A stretch of DNA of 64,000 nucleotides, from the NCBI RefSeq assembly GCF_003019035.1, contig NZ_CP027447.1. One strand, given 5' to 3'. The notes below the pieces were generated by a model. It had not been told where the DNA came from, searched no databases, and saw only the letters and a program-made list of their open reading frames with translations. Source of the DNA: Escherichia coli. Its GTDB lineage: Bacteria; Pseudomonadota; Gammaproteobacteria; Enterobacterales; Enterobacteriaceae. The translations under genes and the position numbers were made by a program. Below are positions 2,587 through 24,383 of this stretch, piece by piece (within the stretch, counting starts at the first letter, position 1; each line of letters opens with the position of its first letter).

Positions 2587-3639
2587 ATGAAAAAAATACC
2601 CTGCGTGATGATGCGAGGTGGAACCTCGAGGGGCGCGTTCCTGTTAGCGGAACATCTACCCGAAGATCAAACGCAGCGCGATAAAATATTGATGGCAATT
2701 ATGGGTTCCGGTAACGATCTGGAAATTGACGGTATTGGCGGCGGTAATCCGCTGACCAGTAAAGTCGCCATTATTAGCCGCTCCAGCGATCCGCATGCAG
2801 ATGTCGATTATCTGTTTGCTCAAGTTATCGTCCATGAGCAACGTGTCGATACCACGCCTAACTGCGGCAATATGCTGTCTGGCGTTGGGGCATTCGCCAT
2901 TGAAAATGGTTTGATTGCAGCGACTTCGCCAGTTACCCGCGTACGTATCCGCAACGTCAATACGGGTACGTTCATCGAAGCTGATGTGCAAACGCCAAAT
3001 GGTGTTGTCGAGTACGAGGGTAGCGCCAGAATTGACGGCGTACCGGGTACTGCCGCACCGGTTGCGCTCACTTTCCTGAATGCCGCCGGAACGAAAACCG
3101 GAAAAGTCTTCCCGACAGATAATCAGATTGATTATTTTGACGATGTCCCGGTGACCTGTATCGATATGGCGATGCCAATTGTCATTATTCCTGCTGAATA
3201 TCTGGGAAAAACAGGCTATGAATTACCGGCAGAGCTGGATGCCGACAAAGCATTATTAGCCCGCATTGAATCTATCCGTCTACAAGCGGGTAAAGCAATG
3301 GGCTTAGGCGATGTCAGTAATATGGTTATCCCTAAACCTGTACTTATTTCTCCAGCGCAGAAAGGCGGGGCAATTAATGTGCGTTATTTTATGCCGCATT
3401 CTTGCCATCGCGCTTTGGCGATAACCGGTGCTATTGCTATTTCCAGTAGTTGTGCATTGGAAGGCACCGTCACCCGACAAATCGTCCCTTCTGTAGGATA
3501 CGGCAATATCAATATTGAACACCCCAGTGGTGCGCTCGACGTTCATTTAAGTAATGAAGGTCAGGATGCCACGACGTTACGCGCATCTGTTATTCGGACG
3601 ACCAGAAAAATATTTTCCGGTGAAGTTTATCTTCCCTGA
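2587..3639 (+). CDS. ybhH: PrpF-family isomerase-like protein YbhH
   Basis: 350-aa ORF; sequence and length match E. coli YbhH. Confidence 0.85.
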   Translation: MKKIPCVMMRGGTSRGAFLLAEHLPEDQTQRDKILMAIMGSGNDLEIDGIGGGNPLTSKVAIISRSSDPHADVDYLFAQVIVHEQRVDTTPNCGNMLSGVGAFAIENGLIAATSPVTRVRIRNVNTGTFIEADVQTPNGVVEYEGSARIDGVPGTAAPVALTFLNAAGTKTGKVFPTDNQIDYFDDVPVTCIDMAMPIVIIPAEYLGKTGYELPAELDADKALLARIESIRLQAGKAMGLGDVSNMVIPKPVLISPAQKGGAINVRYFMPHSCHRALAITGAIAISSSCALEGTVTRQIVPSVGYGNINIEHPSGALDVHLSNEGQDATTLRASVIRTTRKIFSGEVYLP

Positions 3640-3714
3640 AAAATTTTGTTGTCGTGATAATGACAATCAATAAAGGAATTCTGTATGAGTCATACAGAAA
3701 GAACAGGATATTAA

Positions 3715-5148
3715 ATGAATAAAAAATCGTTATGGAAGCTAATTCTGATATTAGCGATCCCATGTATTATTGGCTTTATGCCAGCTCCGGCAGGATTAAG
3801 CGAACTGGCGTGGGTGCTTTTTGGTATTTACCTGGCGGCCATTGTGGGACTGGTGATTAAGCCTTTCCCGGAACCTGTCGTACTGTTAATTGCCGTTGCT
3901 GCCTCCATGGTGGTGGTCGGTAACTTATCCGACGGTGCGTTTAAGACCACCGCCGTATTAAGCGGTTACTCTTCAGGTACCACCTGGCTGGTGTTCTCGG
4001 CGTTTACCTTAAGCGCCGCATTTGTGACCACCGGCTTAGGTAAACGTATTGCCTATTTGCTGATTGGTAAAATTGGTAGCACTACCCTGGGTCTGGGTTA
4101 CGTTACGGTATTCCTCGATCTGGTACTGGCTCCGGCAACACCGTCTAACACCGCGCGTGCGGGCGGCATTGTGTTACCGATCATCAACAGCGTGGCGGTG
4201 GCTTTGGGGTCAGAACCGGAAAAAAGTCCGCGTCGTGTCGGACATTACCTGATGATGTCCATTTACATGGTCACCAAAACCACCAGCTATATGTTCTTTA
4301 CCGCAATGGCGGGGAACATTCTGGCGCTGAAAATGATCAACGACATTCTGCACCTGCAAATTAGCTGGGGTGGATGGGCGCTGGCCGCCGGATTGCCGGG
4401 CATCATTATGCTGCTGGTCACCCCGCTGGTGATTTACACCATGTATCCACCAGAAATTAAGAAGGTGGATAACAAAACCATCGCTAAAGCGGGCCTTGCC
4501 GAACTGGGACCGATGAAAATCCGCGAAAAAATGCTGCTCGGTGTCTTTGTGCTGGCGCTGCTGGGCTGGATTTTCAGTAAGTCTCTGGGGGTTGATGAAT
4601 CCACCGTGGCAATCGTTGTTATGGCAACTATGCTGCTGCTGGGCATCGTTACCTGGGAAGACGTGGTTAAAAATAAAGGCGGCTGGAATACCTTAATCTG
4701 GTACGGCGGTATTATCGGCTTAAGCTCCTTATTATCGAAAGTTAAATTCTTCGAATGGTTAGCTGAAGTCTTTAAAAATAACCTGGCATTTGATGGTCAC
4801 GGGAACGTTGCTTTCTTCGTTATTATTTTCCTCAGCATCATCGTGCGTTATTTCTTCGCTTCTGGTAGTGCCTATATCGTTGCCATGTTACCGGTATTTG
4901 CCATGCTGGCGAATGTCTCCGGCGCACCGTTAATGTTAACCGCGCTGGCACTGTTGTTCTCTAACTCCTATGGCGGCATGGTTACTCACTATGGCGGCGC
5001 GGCAGGTCCGGTCATCTTTGGCGTGGGTTACAACGATATTAAATCCTGGTGGTTGGTCGGTGCGGTACTGACGATATTAACCTTCCTGGTGCATATCACC
5101 CTCGGCGTGTGGTGGTGGAATATGCTGATCGGCTGGAACATGCTGTAA
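3715..5148 (+). CDS. ybhI: DASS-family anion:sodium symporter-like inner membrane transporter YbhI
   Basis: 477-aa polytopic membrane protein; matches YbhI in length and position. Confidence 0.85.
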   Translation: MNKKSLWKLILILAIPCIIGFMPAPAGLSELAWVLFGIYLAAIVGLVIKPFPEPVVLLIAVAASMVVVGNLSDGAFKTTAVLSGYSSGTTWLVFSAFTLSAAFVTTGLGKRIAYLLIGKIGSTTLGLGYVTVFLDLVLAPATPSNTARAGGIVLPIINSVAVALGSEPEKSPRRVGHYLMMSIYMVTKTTSYMFFTAMAGNILALKMINDILHLQISWGGWALAAGLPGIIMLLVTPLVIYTMYPPEIKKVDNKTIAKAGLAELGPMKIREKMLLGVFVLALLGWIFSKSLGVDESTVAIVVMATMLLLGIVTWEDVVKNKGGWNTLIWYGGIIGLSSLLSKVKFFEWLAEVFKNNLAFDGHGNVAFFVIIFLSIIVRYFFASGSAYIVAMLPVFAMLANVSGAPLMLTALALLFSNSYGGMVTHYGGAAGPVIFGVGYNDIKSWWLVGAVLTILTFLVHITLGVWWWNMLIGWNML

Positions 5149-5330
5149 ATATACTCGTCATACTTCAAGTTGCATGTGCTGCGTCTGCGTTCGCTCACCC
5201 CAGTCACTTACTTATGTAAGCTCCTGGGGATTCACTCGCTTGTCGCCTTCCTGCAACTCGAATTATATAGAGTATATCCATTTATTATCTTTCTGCGCAC
5301 TTTCCGGTGCGCAGATATCTGGAGCATTTG

Positions 5331-7592
5331 ATGATCAAGTTATCTGAAAAAGGCGTGTTTCTCGCCAGTAATAAGGAAATAATTGCCGAAGAACATTTCA
5401 TCGGTGAAATAAAAAAAGAAGAAGCAAAAAAAGGCACTATTGCCTGGTCTATTCTCTCTTCTCATAATACGTCTGGTAATATGGATAAACTTAAAATTAA
5501 GTTTGATTCATTAGCCTCTCACGATATTACCTTTGTTGGTATTGTACAGACCGCTAAAGCGTCCGGTATGGAACGTTTCCCGCTGCCGTATGTGCTGACC
5601 AACTGCCATAACTCACTCTGCGCCGTCGGCGGCACTATTAACGGTGATGATCATGTTTTTGGTTTATCGGCAGCCCAGCGTTATGGCGGTATTTTTGTGC
5701 CTCCGCACATTGCGGTCATCCATCAATATATGCGTGAGATGATGGCAGGCGGCGGCAAAATGATCCTCGGGTCAGACAGCCACACCCGTTACGGTGCATT
5801 AGGGACAATGGCAGTCGGTGAGGGCGGCGGTGAGTTGGTAAAACAGCTGCTTAATGACACCTGGGATATCGACTATCCGGGCGTGGTTGCGGTGCATCTG
5901 ACCGGAAAACCTGCGCCGTATGTGGGGCCGCAGGATGTGGCGCTGGCTATCATCGGTGCCGTGTTCAAAAACGGTTACGTCAAAAACAAAGTGATGGAGT
6001 TCGTAGGTCCCGGTGTTGCAGCGCTCTCTACCGATTTCCGCAACAGCGTTGACGTGATGACCACTGAAACGACCTGTTTAAGTTCTGTCTGGCAAACCGA
6101 TGAAGAAGTCCATAACTGGCTGGCGCTGCACGGTCGCGGCCAGGATTACTGCCAGCTTAACCCTCAACCGATGGCGTACTACGATGGCTGCATCAGCGTT
6201 GATTTAAGCGCCATCAAACCAATGATTGCGCTGCCGTTCCACCCGAGCAACGTCTATGAAATCGACACGCTGAACCAGAACCTGACCGACATTCTGCGTG
6301 AGATTGAAATTGAGTCCGAACGCGTGGCGCACGGTAAAGCCAAACTCTCGCTGCTGGATAAAGTCGAAAACGGTCGCCTGAAAGTGCAGCAGGGGATTAT
6401 CGCGGGCTGTTCTGGCGGTAACTATGAAAACGTCATCGCGGCGGCGAATGCGCTGCGCGGTCAATCCTGTGGCAATGACACCTTCTCGTTAGCGGTTTAC
6501 CCGTCATCACAGCCGGTGTTTATGGATCTCGCCAAAAAAGGTGTGGTAGCAGATTTGATTGGCGCAGGCGCAATCATCAGAACCGCGTTCTGCGGCCCAT
6601 GCTTTGGCGCGGGCGATACGCCAATCAACAACGGTTTGAGTATTCGCCACACCACGCGAAACTTCCCGAATCGCGAAGGCTCTAAGCCAGCCAATGGGCA
6701 GATGTCAGCGGTGGCGTTGATGGACGCTCGTTCTATCGCTGCGACTGCGGCAAACGGTGGCTATTTAACCTCTGCCAGCGCGCTGGATTGCTGGGACAAC
6801 GTGCCGGAGTACGCCTTCGATGTAACGCCGTATAAAAACCGTGTTTATCAGGGCTTTGTGAAAGGGGCGACCCAGCAACCGCTGATTTACGGACCGAACA
6901 TTAAAGACTGGCCGGAATTGGGTGCGCTGACTGACAATATCGTCCTCAAAGTGTGCTCAAAGATCCTCGACGAAGTGACCACCACCGACGAACTGATCCC
7001 TTCCGGTGAAACCTCTTCTTATCGTTCAAATCCGATTGGTCTGGCGGAGTTTACCCTGTCACGCCGCGATCCAGGTTATGTTGGCAGAAGTAAAGCGACT
7101 GCTGAGCTGGAAAATCAGCGTCTGGCGGGGAATGTCAGCGAGCTGACAGAGGTGTTTGCGCGCATTAAGCAGATTGCTGGTCAGGAACATGTTGATCCGC
7201 TGCAAACTGAAATTGGCAGCATGGTTTATGCGGTGAAACCAGGCGATGGTTCTGCGCGTGAACAGGCGGCGAGTTGTCAGCGTGTGATTGGCGGTCTGGC
7301 GAATATTGCCGAGGAGTACGCGACTAAACGCTATCGTTCTAACGTCATCAACTGGGGGATGTTACCGCTGCAGATGGCGGAAGCGCCAACCTTTGAAGTG
7401 GGGGATTACATTTACATCCCTGGCATTAAAGCGGCACTGGATAATCCGGGTACGACGTTTAAAGGTTATGTGATCCATGAAGATGCGCCGGTAACGGAAA
7501 TTACGCTTTACATGGAAAGCCTGACGGCTGAAGAGCGCGAGATTATCAAGGCGGGTAGTTTGATTAACTTCAATAAAAACCGTCAGATGTAA
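5331..7592 (+). CDS. ybhJ: Aconitase-family protein YbhJ
   Basis: Track ORF 5307..7592 trimmed to ATG at 5331 (MIKLSEKG...) behind a GGAG RBS, giving 753 aa; Cys-containing aconitase-like region. Confidence 0.85.
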
Positions 7593-20805: not shown

Positions 20806-21258
20806 ATGGCAGAAACCAAAATTGTTATCGGCCCGCAGCCGTTCAGCGTAGGAGAAGAGTATCCGTGGCTGGCGGAGCGTGATGAAGACGGTGCGGTAGT
20901 CACCTTTACCGGTAAGGTGCGCAACCATAACCTTGGCGACAGCGTCAAAGCATTAACCCTCGAACACTATCCGGGGATGACTGAAAAAGCACTGGCAGAA
21001 ATTGTCGATGAAGCGCGTAACCGCTGGCCGCTGGGGCGCGTCACGGTGATTCACCGCATCGGGGAATTATGGCCGGGCGATGAAATCGTTTTTGTCGGTG
21101 TCACCAGTGCGCATCGCAGCAGTGCGTTTGAAGCCGGGCAGTTTATTATGGATTATCTCAAAACCCGCGCACCGTTCTGGAAGCGTGAAGCCACGCCGGA
21201 AGGCGACCGCTGGGTCGAAGCTCGGGAGAGCGATCAGCAGGCGGCAAAACGCTGGTAG
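20806..21258 (+). CDS. moaE: Molybdopterin synthase catalytic subunit
   Basis: 150-aa ORF beginning 2 nt after the moaD stop. Confidence 0.95.
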   Translation: MAETKIVIGPQPFSVGEEYPWLAERDEDGAVVTFTGKVRNHNLGDSVKALTLEHYPGMTEKALAEIVDEARNRWPLGRVTVIHRIGELWPGDEIVFVGVTSAHRSSAFEAGQFIMDYLKTRAPFWKREATPEGDRWVEARESDQQAAKRW

Positions 21259-21268
21259 TTTTTTGTTA

Positions 21269-21295
21269 GCCGGATAAGGCACCGCTGCGTCCGGC
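21269..21295. repeat. REP-like palindromic unit downstream of moaE
   Basis: gccggataaggc...gcgtccggc resembles the REP consensus; degenerate. Confidence 0.4.
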
Positions 21296-21394
21296 AATTT
21301 CACCGCTCAGTATATGCGTTTACGCTGCGTCGATGCACAGCCTCATCATTTTGCAGTATCCTTAAGATATTCCTTATATCTTCAGGAGATCGTC

Positions 21395-22099
21395 ATGGAC
21401 AGATTCCCACGTTCTGATTCAATCGTACAAACCCGAACTGGCCTGCAAACCTATATGGCACAGGTCTATGGCTGGATGACCGTTGGCTTGCTGCTTACTG
21501 CGTTTGTTGCCTGGTATGCGGCTAATTCCGCGGCCGTTATGGAGCTATTATTCACCAACCGCATCTTTTTAATTGGTCTGGTAATAGCACAATTAGCTCT
21601 GGTTATTGTGTTATCAGCGATGATTCAAAAGCTGAGCGCAGGTGTAACGACGATGCTCTTTATGCTTTATTCGGCGCTGACGGGTCTTACGCTTTCCAGT
21701 ATTTTCATTGTCTATACCGCTGCTTCTATCGCCAGTACTTTCGTCGTTACTGCCGGGATGTTCGGCGCAATGAGCCTGTACGGTTACACCACGAAGCGCG
21801 ATCTAAGTGGTTTCGGCAATATGCTGTTTATGGCGTTGATCGGCATTGTGCTGGCATCGCTGGTCAACTTCTGGCTGAAAAGCGAAGCGTTGATGTGGGC
21901 AGTCACATACATCGGCGTGATTGTCTTTGTCGGATTGACGGCGTATGACACCCAGAAACTGAAAAATATGGGTGAGCAGATTGATACCCGCGACACGTCG
22001 AACCTGCGCAAATATTCCATTCTTGGCGCGTTGACCTTGTATCTGGACTTCATCAACCTGTTCCTGATGTTGCTGCGGATCTTCGGCAACCGCCGTTAA
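21395..22099 (+). CDS. ybhL: BI-1/TMBIM-family inner membrane protein YbhL
   Basis: Track ORF 21314..22099 trimmed to ATG at 21395 (MDRFPRSDS...) behind an AGGAG RBS, giving 234 aa; seven predicted TM helices. Confidence 0.9.
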   Translation: MDRFPRSDSIVQTRTGLQTYMAQVYGWMTVGLLLTAFVAWYAANSAAVMELLFTNRIFLIGLVIAQLALVIVLSAMIQKLSAGVTTMLFMLYSALTGLTLSSIFIVYTAASIASTFVVTAGMFGAMSLYGYTTKRDLSGFGNMLFMALIGIVLASLVNFWLKSEALMWAVTYIGVIVFVGLTAYDTQKLKNMGEQIDTRDTSNLRKYSILGALTLYLDFINLFLMLLRIFGNRR

Positions 22100-22243
22100 T
22101 TCTTTTTTCACCATCAATATCCCGGCCTGGTGCCGGGATTTTTTCGGATTATATAAAGGCTGTTTCGCTCATTTACATGAGAACTGAATTGCCGCAAATG
22201 CCAGACTATGTCCACTGCATAATTTCAGGGACAGATAACGCAT

Positions 22244-22948
22244 TTGAACAGACGATCCTCTGCTACTCAATTACAGCAAAAAAGCGCTTTGCTCAGAAAA
22301 ATGTTGCCCCTCATTTGGTGGTTAACAGCTGCTGGAGTATGGGCTACGGCAGGCACAGCCTGGATACTGCAGCACATGCATTGGGTTGCTTCACTAGAGT
22401 CTCCAGGCGCGTTTGTCTTCGCTTTGTCTGCGCTGATAATAATTGGTTTCTGGTTAAACAATGCGCTGAAAAGGCTCAAGGCATTAGGCGCATGTCTGGT
22501 CTATCTGCTATTAATCTTGCTTATTGGCTTTCTCTTCACCAGCCTTTTTACCTTTTCGAGCATAGCGACGGTAATGGGAATTACGGGAGGGATGTTTGCC
22601 ACAATGGCGCTGATTTTCTGTTGTATTAATAGGGCTATCCCGCCAGTCAGACAGTTATGTTTATATATCTTCTGTGGTTTGAGTATTGCTTTTGTTGTTA
22701 ACCTGATTCTCACCAGCAGTTTTTCCGTGTGGTTAGCGAGTATTTTGACTGTCGTTATCTGGGGCGTTACGGCTGCCTGTGAAGCAACAACACTGGAAGA
22801 TTTGATTCGTGTTGCCGACTTTTCTGACATTACGGGTTTTCTTCGCTGTACCGTTCCTGGAGCAATAACTCTCTATTTCAGTATTCTAACTGTGCTTTTT
22901 AGGATTGCTGTAACGCTTCTTGATTTTATTAATGGGTTAGTGTGGTAG
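22244..22948 (+). CDS. ybhM: BI-1-like inner membrane protein, YbhM-like paralog 1
   Basis: Track ORF; the listed first codon is TTG, so the true start is uncertain (next ATG is at about 22301). C-terminus GAITLY...DFIN resembles YbhL. Symbol assigned by position. Confidence 0.7.
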   Translation: MNRRSSATQLQQKSALLRKMLPLIWWLTAAGVWATAGTAWILQHMHWVASLESPGAFVFALSALIIIGFWLNNALKRLKALGACLVYLLLILLIGFLFTSLFTFSSIATVMGITGGMFATMALIFCCINRAIPPVRQLCLYIFCGLSIAFVVNLILTSSFSVWLASILTVVIWGVTAACEATTLEDLIRVADFSDITGFLRCTVPGAITLYFSILTVLFRIAVTLLDFINGLVW

Positions 22949-23016
22949 TGCATATTGATGAATTTTTTGCGCTAATGGAAATAGATGTCGATATTTGACT
23001 TAAGGATAGAACAATA

Positions 23017-23730
23017 ATGAAGTCGCGGTCGTTAAATAACATAACTAATAAGTTCCAGCACGAAGCCAGAATATTAAACGCCATATGGCTCATTACCGCT
23101 TTGGGGGTGACAGCAACCGCAGGCCTGGCATGGATAGCTAAGTATCTCGATATCACGGCAACAAAATATGATTCACCGCAAATGTATGTCGCCATAGGAT
23201 TATTATTACTTTGTATGTATGGTTTAAGTAAGGATATCAACAAGATAAATGCCGCCATCGCAGGCCTAATATATCTGTTTTTACTCTCTTTGGTGGCGAT
23301 TGTCGTTGCAAGTTTAGTTCCTGTGCCTGCCATTATCGTCGTGTTCAGCACTGCGGGATCGATGTTTTTAATCAGTATGCTGGCAGGTCTATTGTTTAAA
23401 TTTGATCCTGGTTCTCACCGTTTTATCATTATGATGACGTTGACAGGGTTGGCCCTGGTAATCATCGTGAATGCCACATTAATGAGTGAACGACCCATTT
23501 GGGTAATAAGTTGCTTAATGATTGTCTTATGGTCAGGCATTATCTCGCATGGACGAAATAAGCTCCTTGAACTGACAGGAAAAAGCCATAGTGAAGAATT
23601 ATGGAGTCCGGTTCGTTGCGCTGTTACAGGTGCATTAACACTCTATTACTATTTTATCGGCTTCTTTGGGATTCTTGCAGCAATAGCGATGACGCTTGTC
23701 TGGCAAAGGCATACGCGGTTTCATATTTAA
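23017..23730 (+). CDS. BI-1-like inner membrane protein, YbhM-like paralog 2
   Basis: 237-aa ORF with ATG start behind an AAGGA RBS; shares blocks with the upstream paralog (IWLITALGVTATAG vs IWWLTAAGVWATAG; RCAVTGALTLY vs RCTVPGAITLY). Its length equals annotated K-12 YbhM, so either paralog could be the orthologue. Confidence 0.7.
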   Translation: MKSRSLNNITNKFQHEARILNAIWLITALGVTATAGLAWIAKYLDITATKYDSPQMYVAIGLLLLCMYGLSKDINKINAAIAGLIYLFLLSLVAIVVASLVPVPAIIVVFSTAGSMFLISMLAGLLFKFDPGSHRFIIMMTLTGLALVIIVNATLMSERPIWVISCLMIVLWSGIISHGRNKLLELTGKSHSEELWSPVRCAVTGALTLYYYFIGFFGILAAIAMTLVWQRHTRFHI

Positions 23731-23788
23731 CGCACTTTCGACTTACGTTTAGAAATGTAGTATCTGAAATACAATAGTGGAGAATATC

Positions 23789-24145
23789 ATGCAGTTAGTT
23801 TGTACCATCGATAATAAATATATGGATAAATTTATGGCTATACTGCTTTCAGGAGTGTTACTTTCCTTGAAAGAAGGCACGATAACTATAGATGAATCTG
23901 AACTACTAGTTTTCAGACCTTTTATTTCCAGGCTTTTACACAAAAATGATTGTGATAAAGAGCTAATAGAGATAATTGATCTTGGTTGTGATCTTGAAAG
24001 TATTGAATCATTAGTTCCTGAGTATCTTGATGATGCTATAAAAAACTTAATAATCAAAACAAGTGATTTTACATATGCAATAAAAGATAGTTATCCTTTG
24101 AGTAATAAAATGGAACATGCAGTATCTTTTATGTTTAGAGATTAA
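23789..24145 (+). CDS. Hypothetical small acidic protein (about 118 aa)
   Basis: Track ORF 23777..24145 (GTG) trimmed to ATG at 23789 behind GGAG; very AT-rich; no recognisable motif. Confidence 0.45.
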   Translation: MQLVCTIDNKYMDKFMAILLSGVLLSLKEGTITIDESELLVFRPFISRLLHKNDCDKELIEIIDLGCDLESIESLVPEYLDDAIKNLIIKTSDFTYAIKDSYPLSNKMEHAVSFMFRD

Positions 24146-24158
24146 AAAGGTTTATAAA

Positions 24159-24380
24159 ATGTTCAAAGATAAAACTCTGGCAGCAGATATCAGCGCATTA
24201 ATGCTCAATATTGGTTCTCAATTAGATGCGTCAGTATTATATGTTCAGAAAGCTTGCGATGAATCTGAGCTTAATATTTATCGTTCCGCCGTCGGGGAAA
24301 TTATGGGGCGCATGTTAATCGATATCATGAACCCCATCTATAAACAGCATCCCGAACTTAAACCAAAAGAACTTAACTAA
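24159..24380 (+). CDS. Hypothetical small protein (about 73 aa)
   Basis: Track ORF 24117..24380 trimmed to ATG at 24159 (MFKDKTLAAD...) behind AAAGG, 14 nt after the preceding stop; AT-rich; ends 4 nt from the ybhN stop. Confidence 0.4.
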   Translation: MFKDKTLAADISALMLNIGSQLDASVLYVQKACDESELNIYRSAVGEIMGRMLIDIMNPIYKQHPELKPKELN

Positions 24381-24383
24381 ACT

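Follow-up and report, generated by a model that had tools for sequence, protein, structure and literature searches.

YbhL and Bacillus subtilis YetJ (PDB 4pgr) are canonical bacterial TMBIM/BI-1 proteins, and YetJ is a pH-sensitive Ca2+ leak. The Escherichia coli member YccA is both a substrate and an inhibitor of FtsH and, to our knowledge, it alone among the E. coli BI-1 proteins has a known function. We know of no BI-1 family protein that acts as an immunity protein. The di-aspartyl sensor and the YccA–FtsH and TMBIM5–AFG3L2 precedents have been documented (PMC9379554). For the locus considered here, the RefSeq annotation of E. coli K-12 MG1655 (NC_000913.3) gives ybhL (b0786), ybhM (b0787) and ybhN (b0788) and nothing more, and an H-NS site has been listed in the K-12 ybhL–ybhM spacer (Shimada et al., PMC3946193).

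The window analyzed here is a 64,000-nucleotide stretch of E. coli DNA (contig NZ_CP027447.1). E. coli SCU-301 is 100% identical to it, and its three BI-1 genes are annotated alike by RefSeq. From ybhL to ybhN, the window holds the following features:

21395–22099, plus strand: ybhL, encoding a BI-1/YccA-family seven-TM protein of 234 aa (PGAP start); the conserved anchor of the array
22119–22139, plus strand: an intrinsic-terminator-like hairpin and T-run, immediately 3' of ybhL
22208–22222, plus strand: the vestige of an older start of the middle gene, with an in-frame ATG at 22208 and a TAA at 22220 as codon 5
22244–22948, plus strand: the middle gene (mid), an extra YbhM-like BI-1 paralog with a TTG start, 234 aa, without a K-12 counterpart
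23017–23730, plus strand: the ybhM orthologue, 237 aa from an ATG preceded by an AAGGA Shine-Dalgarno sequence
23789–24145, plus strand: a DUF3969 family gene encoding a soluble, acidic protein of 118 aa; a rare accessory of the ybhL–ybhN slot
24159–24380, plus strand: an ORF for an acidic protein of 73 aa, which travels with DUF3969 and ends 3 nt short of the convergent ybhN
24384–25340, minus strand: ybhN, the conserved right boundary of the variable slot

The original prediction held that three membrane paralogs, ybhL and the genes at 22244–22948 and 23017–23730, lie on the same strand where K-12 has only ybhL and ybhM before ybhN, and that one paralog therefore appears to be extra. All three proteins indeed belong to the BI-1/YccA family (PF01027), MG1655 carries only one of the two genes that follow ybhL here, and 22244–22948 is the one that MG1655 lacks. 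This gene is “extra” relative to K-12 only. We consider it likely, with a probability of roughly 70%, that mid, old and variable among strains, is a third member of a tandem array of BI-1/YccA inner-membrane genes, and the loss of an old gene from most E. coli is better supported than a gain in this strain.

The question of which gene is ybhM is settled by sequence identity and position. The product of 23017–23730 is 89% identical to MG1655 YbhM at the amino acid level (the gene is about 91.6% identical to K-12 ybhM at the nucleotide level) and lies on the ybhN side, and the ATG, ribosome-binding site and 237-aa length anticipated for it were all found. The mid protein is 27% identical to MG1655 YbhM, which places it outside the YbhM orthologue group. 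At the borders, YbhL is 98% identical to its MG1655 counterpart, and ybhN, annotated in both locus L001 and MG1655, shows about 97% nucleotide identity to K-12. The hairpin behind ybhL, which a terminator scan describes as 8 pairs (6/8 of them G-C) followed by TTTTTCGG, is also kept in K-12 and in the B1-type loci, and sets ybhL apart from the genes downstream. GC content drops in steps along the array, from about 50% in ybhL to 45% in mid, 40% in ybhM and about 30% in the DUF3969 pair. The DUF3969 protein matches Pfam PF13108 (E 7e-14). The 73-aa product is the RefSeq hypothetical protein WP_096986768.1, 97% conserved in two other loci (L013 and L018), and has no family match in Pfam, NCBIfam, PADLOC or PHROG. 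Searches of the five proteins from YbhL to the 73-aa product against PADLOC and PHROGs returned nothing meaningful, the annotation from moaB to clsB includes neither a transposase nor an integrase gene, and no known RNA family was found at E ≤ 1 in 21000–24600. In the literature searched, we found no discussion of the extra paralog or of DUF3969.

The mid protein is RefSeq WP_244579195.1, a “Bax inhibitor-1 family protein”, an annotation that RefSeq already gives it in 749 complete genomes. It matches Pfam Bax1-I (PF01027) with an E value of 1.1e-12, its residues 19–222 covering model positions 2–204 of 207, and the YbhM orthologue matches the same model over its full length (E 4.4e-18). The pairwise comparison proposed for the three proteins found them homologous and 25–28% identical by BLASTP: mid and the window's YbhM at 28% (E 5e-22), mid and YbhL at 26% (E 1e-13), and YbhM and YbhL at 25% (E 2e-12). 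Because these E values range from 2e-12 to 5e-22, the homology lies far beyond chance. The AF2 model of mid (pLDDT 92.9, pTM 0.88) displays seven long helices, at residues 3–44, 54–74, 80–101, 104–128, 134–156, 160–190 and 196–233. These results show mid to have a full-length Bax1-I domain, and the model confidently predicts a seven-helix bundle. A Foldseek search with this model against AFDB50 retrieved BI-1/YccA-family models at TM scores of 0.5–0.9; structural searches against the experimental structures of YetJ gave no significant match. A profile of all three paralogs had no match among PDB sequences, and YbhL alone finds YetJ.

YbhL and YetJ are homologous to mid across the whole Bax1-I domain and share its predicted seven helices, and YbhL aligns with YetJ (4pgr) at both Asp residues of the di-aspartyl sensor (YD... 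and LYLDFIN). We read the sensor columns, YetJ Asp171 and Asp195, from an alignment of 71 sequences, 48 of which have D in the first column and 45 in the second. YbhL has D/D, YbhM G/Y and mid E/S, the Glu being residue 180. YbhL therefore differs from mid in keeping both Asp residues. The original prediction of an LTLY...DFIN signature shared by the three proteins does not hold as a common motif. The residues run together as LTLYLDFIN in YbhL, the DFIN of mid comes 14 residues later, in the C-terminal tail, and YbhM reads YYYFIG and lacks a DFIN. We rejected the 14-residue insertion that BLASTP places before the LDFIN of mid and aligned TM7 straight through instead, since the tail motif also occurs in a Kluyvera protein (MDILSGFWW) and the aligned “D” column is Ser. 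The tail DFIN (LLDFIN) of mid itself varies among alleles (DFI, EFI, DII, YFI).

Among the known systems, YbhM (K-12 b0787) resembles mid in its PF01027 domain, length (237 versus 234 aa), predicted seven-TM layout and slot, and both have a clade-specific R-C motif before TM7, fast evolution (dN/dS 0.2–0.45) and AT-rich DNA. YbhM differs in having Gly instead of Glu at the first sensor position, in being only 27–28% identical and no bootstrap sister of mid, and in the occurrence of DNA matching its gene in nearly all E. coli, as opposed to 14% for mid; moreover, mid starts with a TTG behind a truncated ATG frame. YccA is of the same family and, like mid as judged from its sequence, has a basic cytoplasmic N-terminal tail before TM1. 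Unlike YccA, mid has no match to the YccA equivalog model NF007765; neither has YbhM, and YbhL reaches only 23.9 of the 353 bits set as cut-off. The mid product would be a seven-TM protein of N-in/C-out topology whose basic cytoplasmic tail is some 20 residues long. Because only half of the di-aspartyl sensor is kept (Glu180, with no Asp at the second position), mid is probably not a pH-gated Ca2+ leak of the YetJ type. It may rather sit in the membrane to bind or modulate another protein, in the way that YccA acts on the FtsH protease; this is the weakest step of the proposal, and the likeness to the FtsH case is a lead only.

An exhaustive phmmer search with mid over 1.84 billion representatives returned just 80 clusters at E ≤ 1e-3. 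Closest to mid are proteins of Superficieibacter (37%), Kluyvera (36%), Salmonella (35% and 31%) and Pseudocitrobacter (33%), followed by a fourth Escherichia paralog (30%), YbhM (30%) and a Phytobacter protein (27%). At the sequence level, mid is thereby shown to belong to a fast-evolving YbhM-like clade of Enterobacteriaceae only. In the phylogeny suggested along with the original prediction, the branching inside this clade is left undecided by the bootstrap, with 0% for a sister grouping of mid and YbhM and 3–11% (NJ) for specific groupings of mid with the Salmonella or Kluyvera gene. Since the clade is undecided in this way, the case for mid as the counterpart of the Salmonella/Kluyvera gene is one of identity (36% versus 26–28%). 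Clade members lie directly 3' of ybhL in 8 of the 9 contexts examined, between ybhL and ybhN (ybhQ in Kluyvera). The exception is the second Salmonella copy, 3' of guaA, in an island with a “YbhM-like + 203-aa + 184-aa” module; a TsiV (PF11876) gene lies nearby in contig L010. The products in Kluyvera georgiana, Salmonella enterica and Superficieibacter electus, the closest relatives of mid outside Escherichia (36%, 30–35% and 37%), have the same Glu as mid in the first sensor column, and the C-terminal tail of most of them contains an acidic residue. The Kluyvera and Salmonella genes also lie directly 3' of ybhL, as mid does. The companion genes differ, being 202-aa and 186-aa membrane proteins in Salmonella and DUF3969 with the 73-aa soluble protein in Escherichia. 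One fragment of DUF3969, P0198, matches Fic weakly but proved uninformative, as it is a metagenomic piece of only 3.8 kb next to a transposase of the IS1595 family.

Within E. coli, mid is carried by 749 of 5426 complete genomes (about 14%), at 1 or 2 chromosomal places in each. It is absent from the other 86% or so, while DNA matching ybhM is found in nearly all. No phage copies of mid were found, and the three records labelled as plasmids are non-mobilizable. The slot after ybhL holds 0–3 YbhM-like paralogs and changing small genes, in nested Escherichia forms. The richest, which is rare, has ybhL, mid, ybhM, the fourth paralog, DUF3969 and the 73-aa ORF; the window has the same set without the fourth paralog; others have ybhL, mid and ybhM, or only ybhL and ybhM, as in K-12 and most strains. 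The DUF3969 and 73-aa ORF pair is present in 39 of the 5426 genomes. The five-gene form of the window, with mid at the same slot, also occurs in the cryptic-clade strain Escherichia sp. MOD1-EC7003, and E. albertii has a protein 83% identical to mid plus a DUF3969 homologue. The presence or absence of mid is ordinary strain-to-strain variation in gene content at a small hypervariable slot. We suggest that the ancestral Escherichia possessed mid and that deletions then removed it from most lineages of E. coli. Over its final ~75 nt, the K-12 spacer shows a weak resemblance to the mid 3' end and the mid–ybhM spacer (score 25 versus 17.4 ± 2.4 in shuffles, 3 of 500 of which reach it), a resemblance suggestive, though not proof, of a deletion scar; the central ~100 nt of that spacer show no similarity to mid (score 9.5 versus 10.4 ± 1.4 in shuffles).

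Regarding the start of mid, the original prediction of a TTG or an internal ATG was incomplete, as it missed the upstream in-frame ATG at 22208 and the TAA at 22220. The window shares this TAA with L003, the common E. coli allele, whereas four other loci (L004, L013, L014 and L006) have CAA in its place, giving an ATG-started product of 246–247 aa that begins MST(T/A)QFQGQITHLNRR.... The RefSeq versions of the gene correspondingly vary in length (234, 215 or 246 aa). An AGGGA, Shine-Dalgarno-like, lies 12 nt 5' of the TTG, and a promoter scan detected no sigma-70-like promoter between the ybhL terminator and this codon. Seven translated alleles are free of stops and frameshifts. The dN/dS of mid is 0.38–0.46 (below 1, binomial p = 6e-4; pairwise dS 0.14–0.25 among five alleles), compared with 0.02–0.04 for ybhL and 0.22–0.43 for ybhM, so that mid is constrained some ten-fold less than ybhL. 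Judged by these alleles, mid is an intact gene on which purifying selection acts weakly, and in this strain it would still be translated, from the TTG at 22244, after a nonsense codon cut the ATG start. Two other candidate features were rejected. An alternate-frame ORF at 22177–22629 (150 aa) varies from 115 to 150 codons among alleles and is seen only as the N-terminus of frameshifted fusions, and the ybhL–mid intergenic region, at 85–90% identity, is not conserved above the coding region.

The raised dN/dS of mid (about 0.4 versus 0.03 in ybhL) could also mean that mid is a decaying relic, effectively a pseudogene, whose ATG was lost to nonsense, whose TTG ORF is untranslated and which is heading for deletion. 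The codon-5 TAA in the ATG frame of the window and the common allele, the weak ribosome-binding context and the empty promoter scan agree with this, as do the frameshifted versions of mid in some E. coli (P0008, P0010, P0011 and P0016), its absence from 86% of complete genomes, and the truncation or IS disruption of the neighbouring ybhM in some strains. Nevertheless, the 234 codons stay open in all seven alleles, both TAA-bearing ones included, dN/dS is significantly below 1, and the TTG at 22244 and Met20 are invariant. The TAA, moreover, sits on two codon-4 backgrounds, each with its CAA counterpart, and therefore looks recurrent or selected rather than like one random event followed by decay. 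We thus regard decay as unlikely, though it is the most serious competitor of an old, variable gene. A recent gain, whether ybhM or ybhL was duplicated in tandem or a small island was inserted horizontally, is very improbable. The stepwise GC fall across the slot, the absence of mid from K-12 and the dissimilar center of the K-12 spacer would fit it, but an identity of only 26–28% to both YbhL and YbhM rules out recent duplication. Furthermore, mid occupies the same place in cryptic-clade Escherichia and has a close homologue in E. albertii, and it persists as several old alleles in about 14% of E. coli, the opposite of a single recent carrier clade with identical alleles. The annotation from moaB to clsB has no mobile-element gene, no copies on phages or mobilizable plasmids were found, and the end of the K-12 spacer looks as a deletion scar would.

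A further reading takes the ybhL–ybhN slot as a depot of orphan genes for immunity or defence. In it, the divergent YbhM-like seven-TM proteins would counter toxins that target membranes (T6SS, CDI or colicin-type) or the products of phages, with DUF3969, the 73-aa ORF and SUKH-4 as additional immunity proteins. It draws on the paralog number of 0–3, the several deeply diverged alleles in one species, the raised dN/dS and the low GC content, as well as on the slot of E. coli GF4-3, where a 186-aa protein matches the SUKH-4 immunity family (PF14435, E 3.7e-5). The Salmonella guaA module, the TsiV gene near it and the repeated units of two small genes plus a BI-1-like gene at the slot in other genera point the same way. 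On the other hand, none of the loci examined has an adjacent toxin gene or domain, the five proteins have no PADLOC or PHROG matches, and mid itself matches Bax1-I only. The slot holds one YbhM-like gene in Phytobacter and in the P0035 genome, and one lies between ybhL and ybhQ in Kluyvera; these single-gene slots therefore resemble plain vertical inheritance, and dN/dS is below 1 overall. We consider this depot improbable, and equally slim is the chance that the interval is a vertically anchored slot for protective-gene cassettes, to which mid, YbhM and the fourth paralog were recruited against membrane-acting toxins or phage proteins, alongside small, exchangeable proteins of immunity-like kind (DUF3969, the 73-aa ORF and SUKH-4). 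If an immunity or defence role were true, it would bring a new fold to the immunity field and a new bacterial role to the BI-1 fold; its support is thin.

To conclude, our work fixes the identity of ybhM in strains with three BI-1 genes, which is of value for annotation and comparative genomics, and flags the start-codon problem of mid for annotation. K-12 carries a reduced form of a locus that elsewhere has up to four BI-1-family genes. The natural presence/absence series, together with the split between the sensor-bearing YbhL and the sensor-lacking mid and YbhM, provides material for tests of bacterial BI-1 function.

The extra gene between ybhL and ybhM, referred to here as mid, encodes a divergent BI-1/YccA-family protein. 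It is the second of five + strand genes between moaE, which ends at 21258, and ybhN:

21395-22099, + strand: ybhL, the first of the five
22244-22948, + strand: mid, the extra gene, 234 codons from TTG
23017-23730, + strand: ybhM-like gene
23789-24145, + strand: DUF3969 gene, with a 118-aa product
24159-24380, + strand: 73-aa acidic ORF
24384-25340, - strand: ybhN, convergent to the five-gene set

E. coli SCU-301 (NZ_CP051751.1) is 100% identical to the window over this stretch, and RefSeq annotates exactly these genes on it, with mid as WP_244579195.1, a "Bax inhibitor-1 family protein" starting at TTG. A terminator-like hairpin and T-run occupy 22119-22139, 3' of ybhL. The GC content, about 50% in ybhL, steps down gene by gene: mid has about 45%, ybhM 40%, and the DUF3969 gene and the 73-aa ORF 30%. 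The annotation contains no mobile-element gene from moaB to clsB. According to Shimada et al. (PMC3946193), the K-12 spacer between ybhL and ybhM contains an H-NS site, which agrees with an AT-rich region that is probably under silencing in the ybhL-ybhN interval (hereafter, the slot).

The original prediction of three homologous genes on the same strand was borne out. The mid and ybhM-like products both match the full Pfam Bax1-I domain (PF01027; E = 1.1e-12 and 4.4e-18, respectively), and pairwise alignment revealed homology between all pairs (mid/YbhM, 28% identity, E = 5e-22; mid/YbhL, 26%, E = 1e-13; YbhM/YbhL, 25%, E = 2e-12). K-12 had been described as carrying ybhL and ybhM alone before ybhN, and MG1655 indeed has b0786 (ybhL), b0787 (ybhM), b0788 (ybhN) and nothing more, the same set as in a K-12-like laboratory strain. 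The interpretation that one paralog is extra relative to K-12 holds, and the extra one is mid, which is missing from MG1655. The window YbhL is 98% identical to that of K-12. Which gene is the ybhM orthologue had been left open, and sequence comparison settles it in favor of 23017-23730, whose predicted product is 89% identical to MG1655 YbhM; mid, at 27%, is a distinct protein. The proposed shared "LTLY...DFIN" signature did not hold up, as YbhL has a contiguous LTLYLDFIN in TM7, the DFIN of mid lies 14 residues further on, in a tail where it varies between alleles, and YbhM lacks DFIN.

Several features argue that mid would be a live gene. Its 234-codon frame is open in all seven alleles translated, the five alleles measured differ pairwise by a dS of 0.14-0.25, and dN/dS is 0.38-0.46, significantly below 1 (binomial p = 6e-4). 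The protein segment from TM4 to TM6 is nearly invariant between alleles, and the TTG start and the Met20 codon are kept in every allele compared. Other features count against it. The constraint is weak, about ten-fold below that on ybhL (dN/dS 0.03) and similar to that on ybhM (0.22-0.43), a scan from the ybhL terminator to the mid start found no promoter-like site, and the AGGGA sequence sits 12 nt upstream of the TTG. In some strains (P0008, P0010, P0011 and P0016), frameshifts fuse an out-of-frame N-terminus to the body of mid.

The start is more complex than the predicted TTG or internal ATG, as an upstream in-frame ATG at 22208 is followed by a TAA at 22220, codon 5. Four other loci, namely a metagenomic E. 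coli contig (L004), the cryptic-clade Escherichia sp. MOD1-EC7003 (L006), L013 and L014, have CAA at this codon and encode a 246-247-aa protein starting MST(T/A)QFQGQITHLNRR; the annotation of one complete E. coli genome gives mid in this longer form, at 741 nt. Two codon-4 backgrounds carry the TAA: the window has GCA-TAA and the common E. coli allele ACG-TAA. A CAA version of both also exists, which points either to a C-to-T change that recurred or to conversion. With the C-to-T change, CACAAT becomes CATAAT, a -10-like hexamer, for which we claim no function. Because the TTG-start form lines up with YbhM and YbhL at their N-termini, the short mid product is a plausible protein.

Among 5426 complete E. 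coli genomes, 749 (13.8%) contain mid DNA, in every case on the chromosome and at one or two places each, with O103:H2, O121:H19 and O178:H19 strains among the carriers. Just 80-90% identity to the window allele is found in 733 of these 749, and at least 99% in three. The DUF3969/73-aa pair is present in 39 of the 5426, in several allele classes (73% to 100% identity). A fourth YbhM-like paralog of 232 aa, with identities of about 33% to YbhM and of 28-30% to mid, lies between ybhM and DUF3969 in two of them and in draft Escherichia genomes; at its sites (L013, 5001-5699; L018, 3012-3710; L019, E. coli GF4-3, 3012-3710) it makes four consecutive BI-1-family genes. In other genomes ybhM is truncated to 129 aa, or disruptions by IS1, IS200 or IS91 occur; ybhM is dispensable. 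These presence/absence forms and disruptions therefore mark the slot as small and hypervariable, its forms making a nested series in which the K-12 locus is among the shortest. In E. coli THO-008 (L007, 2547-2936), representing one strain class, ybhM is reduced to a 129-aa "hypothetical protein"; IS1/IS200 is annotated at the locus elsewhere. In E. coli EC14, IS91 occupies the expected place of ybhM and ybhN, and both ybhL and clsB are truncated. About 112 nt of ybhN is left beside clsB in MOD1-EC7003 (7188-7299), where the gene appears to be mostly deleted.

Compared with typical E. coli, the window flanks are 97-98% identical (moaC 98%, ybhN 97%, clsB 98%), as is the next 4 kb (97.4-98.1% to almost all E. 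coli), and the array values are 95% for ybhL, 89.5% for mid and 91-92% for ybhM. The divergence is about 2% in moaC, ybhN, clsB and ybhP-ybhF, climbs to 5% for ybhL and reaches 8-10% for mid and ybhM, and the window ybhM is equally distant from K-12 (91.6%) and cryptic-clade Escherichia (91.9%). The array alleles look older than their carrier strains. A 1.4-kb contig of a "Collinsella sp." MAG (JAIJJM010000781.1) holds the ybhL end, mid and the ybhM start, its mid being the common E. coli allele with zero differences, and is almost certainly E. coli contamination.

An exhaustive phmmer search with mid against 1.84 billion cluster representatives (E <= 1e-3) yielded only 80 clusters, the nearest all from Enterobacteriaceae: Superficieibacter (37%), Kluyvera georgiana (36%), Salmonella (35% and 31%), Pseudocitrobacter (33%), the fourth Escherichia paralog (30%), YbhM (30% in this search) and Phytobacter (27%). 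One 1657-aa library protein (P0032) matches mid in 11 separate stretches, which may reflect either BI-1 repeated in many copies or an assembly error. A bootstrap value of 100% separates the YbhM-like clade from YbhL and from generic BI-1 proteins; within the clade, the branching lacks resolution. A recent duplication is ruled out by the 26-28% identity of mid to its neighbors and the 0% bootstrap for a mid+YbhM pair. Clade members lie directly 3' of ybhL or inside ybhL-ybhN in Kluyvera, Salmonella, Pseudocitrobacter, Phytobacter, the P0035 genome and another enterobacterial contig, the sole exception being a second Salmonella copy with its two companion genes, in an island downstream of guaA. 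The five-gene arrangement recurs in the metagenomic E. coli contig and MOD1-EC7003, and E. albertii has a protein 83% identical to mid plus a DUF3969 homologue. Phage sequences held no mid copies, and plasmid matches were confined to three records, all non-mobilizable and two exceeding 1.2 Mb. In the K-12 ybhL-ybhM spacer, the last ~75 nt weakly resemble the mid 3' end and the mid-ybhM spacer (a score reached in 3 of 500 shuffles), and the central ~100 nt resemble no slot sequence. The identities, the shared slot, the clade distribution and the lack of mobile context therefore favor, as the best reading, an ancient tandem array anchored beside ybhL, in which mid would already have existed in the ancestor of Escherichia before most E. 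coli lost it.

Across genera, the slot units consist of one BI-1-like gene and two small genes:

Salmonella: 235-aa BI-1-like protein, then 202-aa and 186-aa membrane proteins
Pseudocitrobacter: 143 and 135 aa, then a 238-aa BI-1-like protein, then 151 and 161 aa
Other enterobacterial contig: three BI-1-like plus small-gene units
Escherichia: up to three BI-1-like genes, then DUF3969 and 73 aa

The Salmonella enterica module (L009/L010, 5001-6900; L015, 5001-6908) comprises a YbhM-like protein of 235-238 aa and membrane proteins of ~202 and ~185 aa; its second copy, 36-45% identical gene by gene, adjoins DUF1266 and DjlB_C genes. A word-index search found DUF3969 in Escherichia only, the E. 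albertii homologue being 66% identical. Such contents raise the idea that the slot is a depot of orphan immunity or defence genes; a copy number that varies, the deep divergence between alleles, the raised dN/dS and the low GC would be consistent with this. One of two further slot genes in GF4-3 (4185-5263; 152 and 186 aa) encodes a 186-aa protein matching the SUKH-4 immunity family (PF14435, E = 3.7e-5), and a TsiV gene lies near the relocated Salmonella module in one contig (L010). However, no toxin gene adjoins any locus examined, PADLOC and PHROGs searches gave no meaningful match, some genera have only one gene in the slot, and dN/dS is below 1 throughout, so that we regard a depot of this kind as improbable.

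A confident AlphaFold2 model of mid, built on a 71-sequence alignment, has seven long helices (pLDDT 92.9, pTM 0.88). The N-terminal tail (MNRRSSATQLQQKSALLRK) and the loops following TM2, TM4 and TM6 are where the basic residues cluster, and by the positive-inside rule mid would therefore be N-in, C-out, like other BI-1 proteins. A di-aspartyl pH sensor has been described for the BI-1 family (PMC9379554), and the alignment of YbhL with YetJ, the B. subtilis pH-sensitive Ca2+ leak, covers both of its Asp residues. Asp occupies these columns in 48/71 and 45/71 sequences, and is replaced by Glu and Ser in mid and by Gly and Tyr in YbhM. We therefore infer that both proteins retain the BI-1 fold without the YetJ-type pH-gated Ca2+ leak, and for mid this residue test excludes a sensor-bearing channel of that type. 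As a lead only, mid more likely acts in the membrane by binding or modulating, for which YccA with FtsH is the family precedent, mirrored by TMBIM5 with AFG3L2 (PMC9379554). Mid is not YccA itself, as the curated YccA model did not match it.

In RefSeq, mid is already annotated across hundreds of genomes with a generic family label, and a literature search found no paper on mid or on DUF3969. Mid is a so far nameless member of a known family, and represents ordinary variation in accessory genes at one small, hypervariable slot of the chromosome. Three details are modestly worth attention: an ATG start that is interrupted, deletions that form a nested series, and paralogs that lack the sensor.
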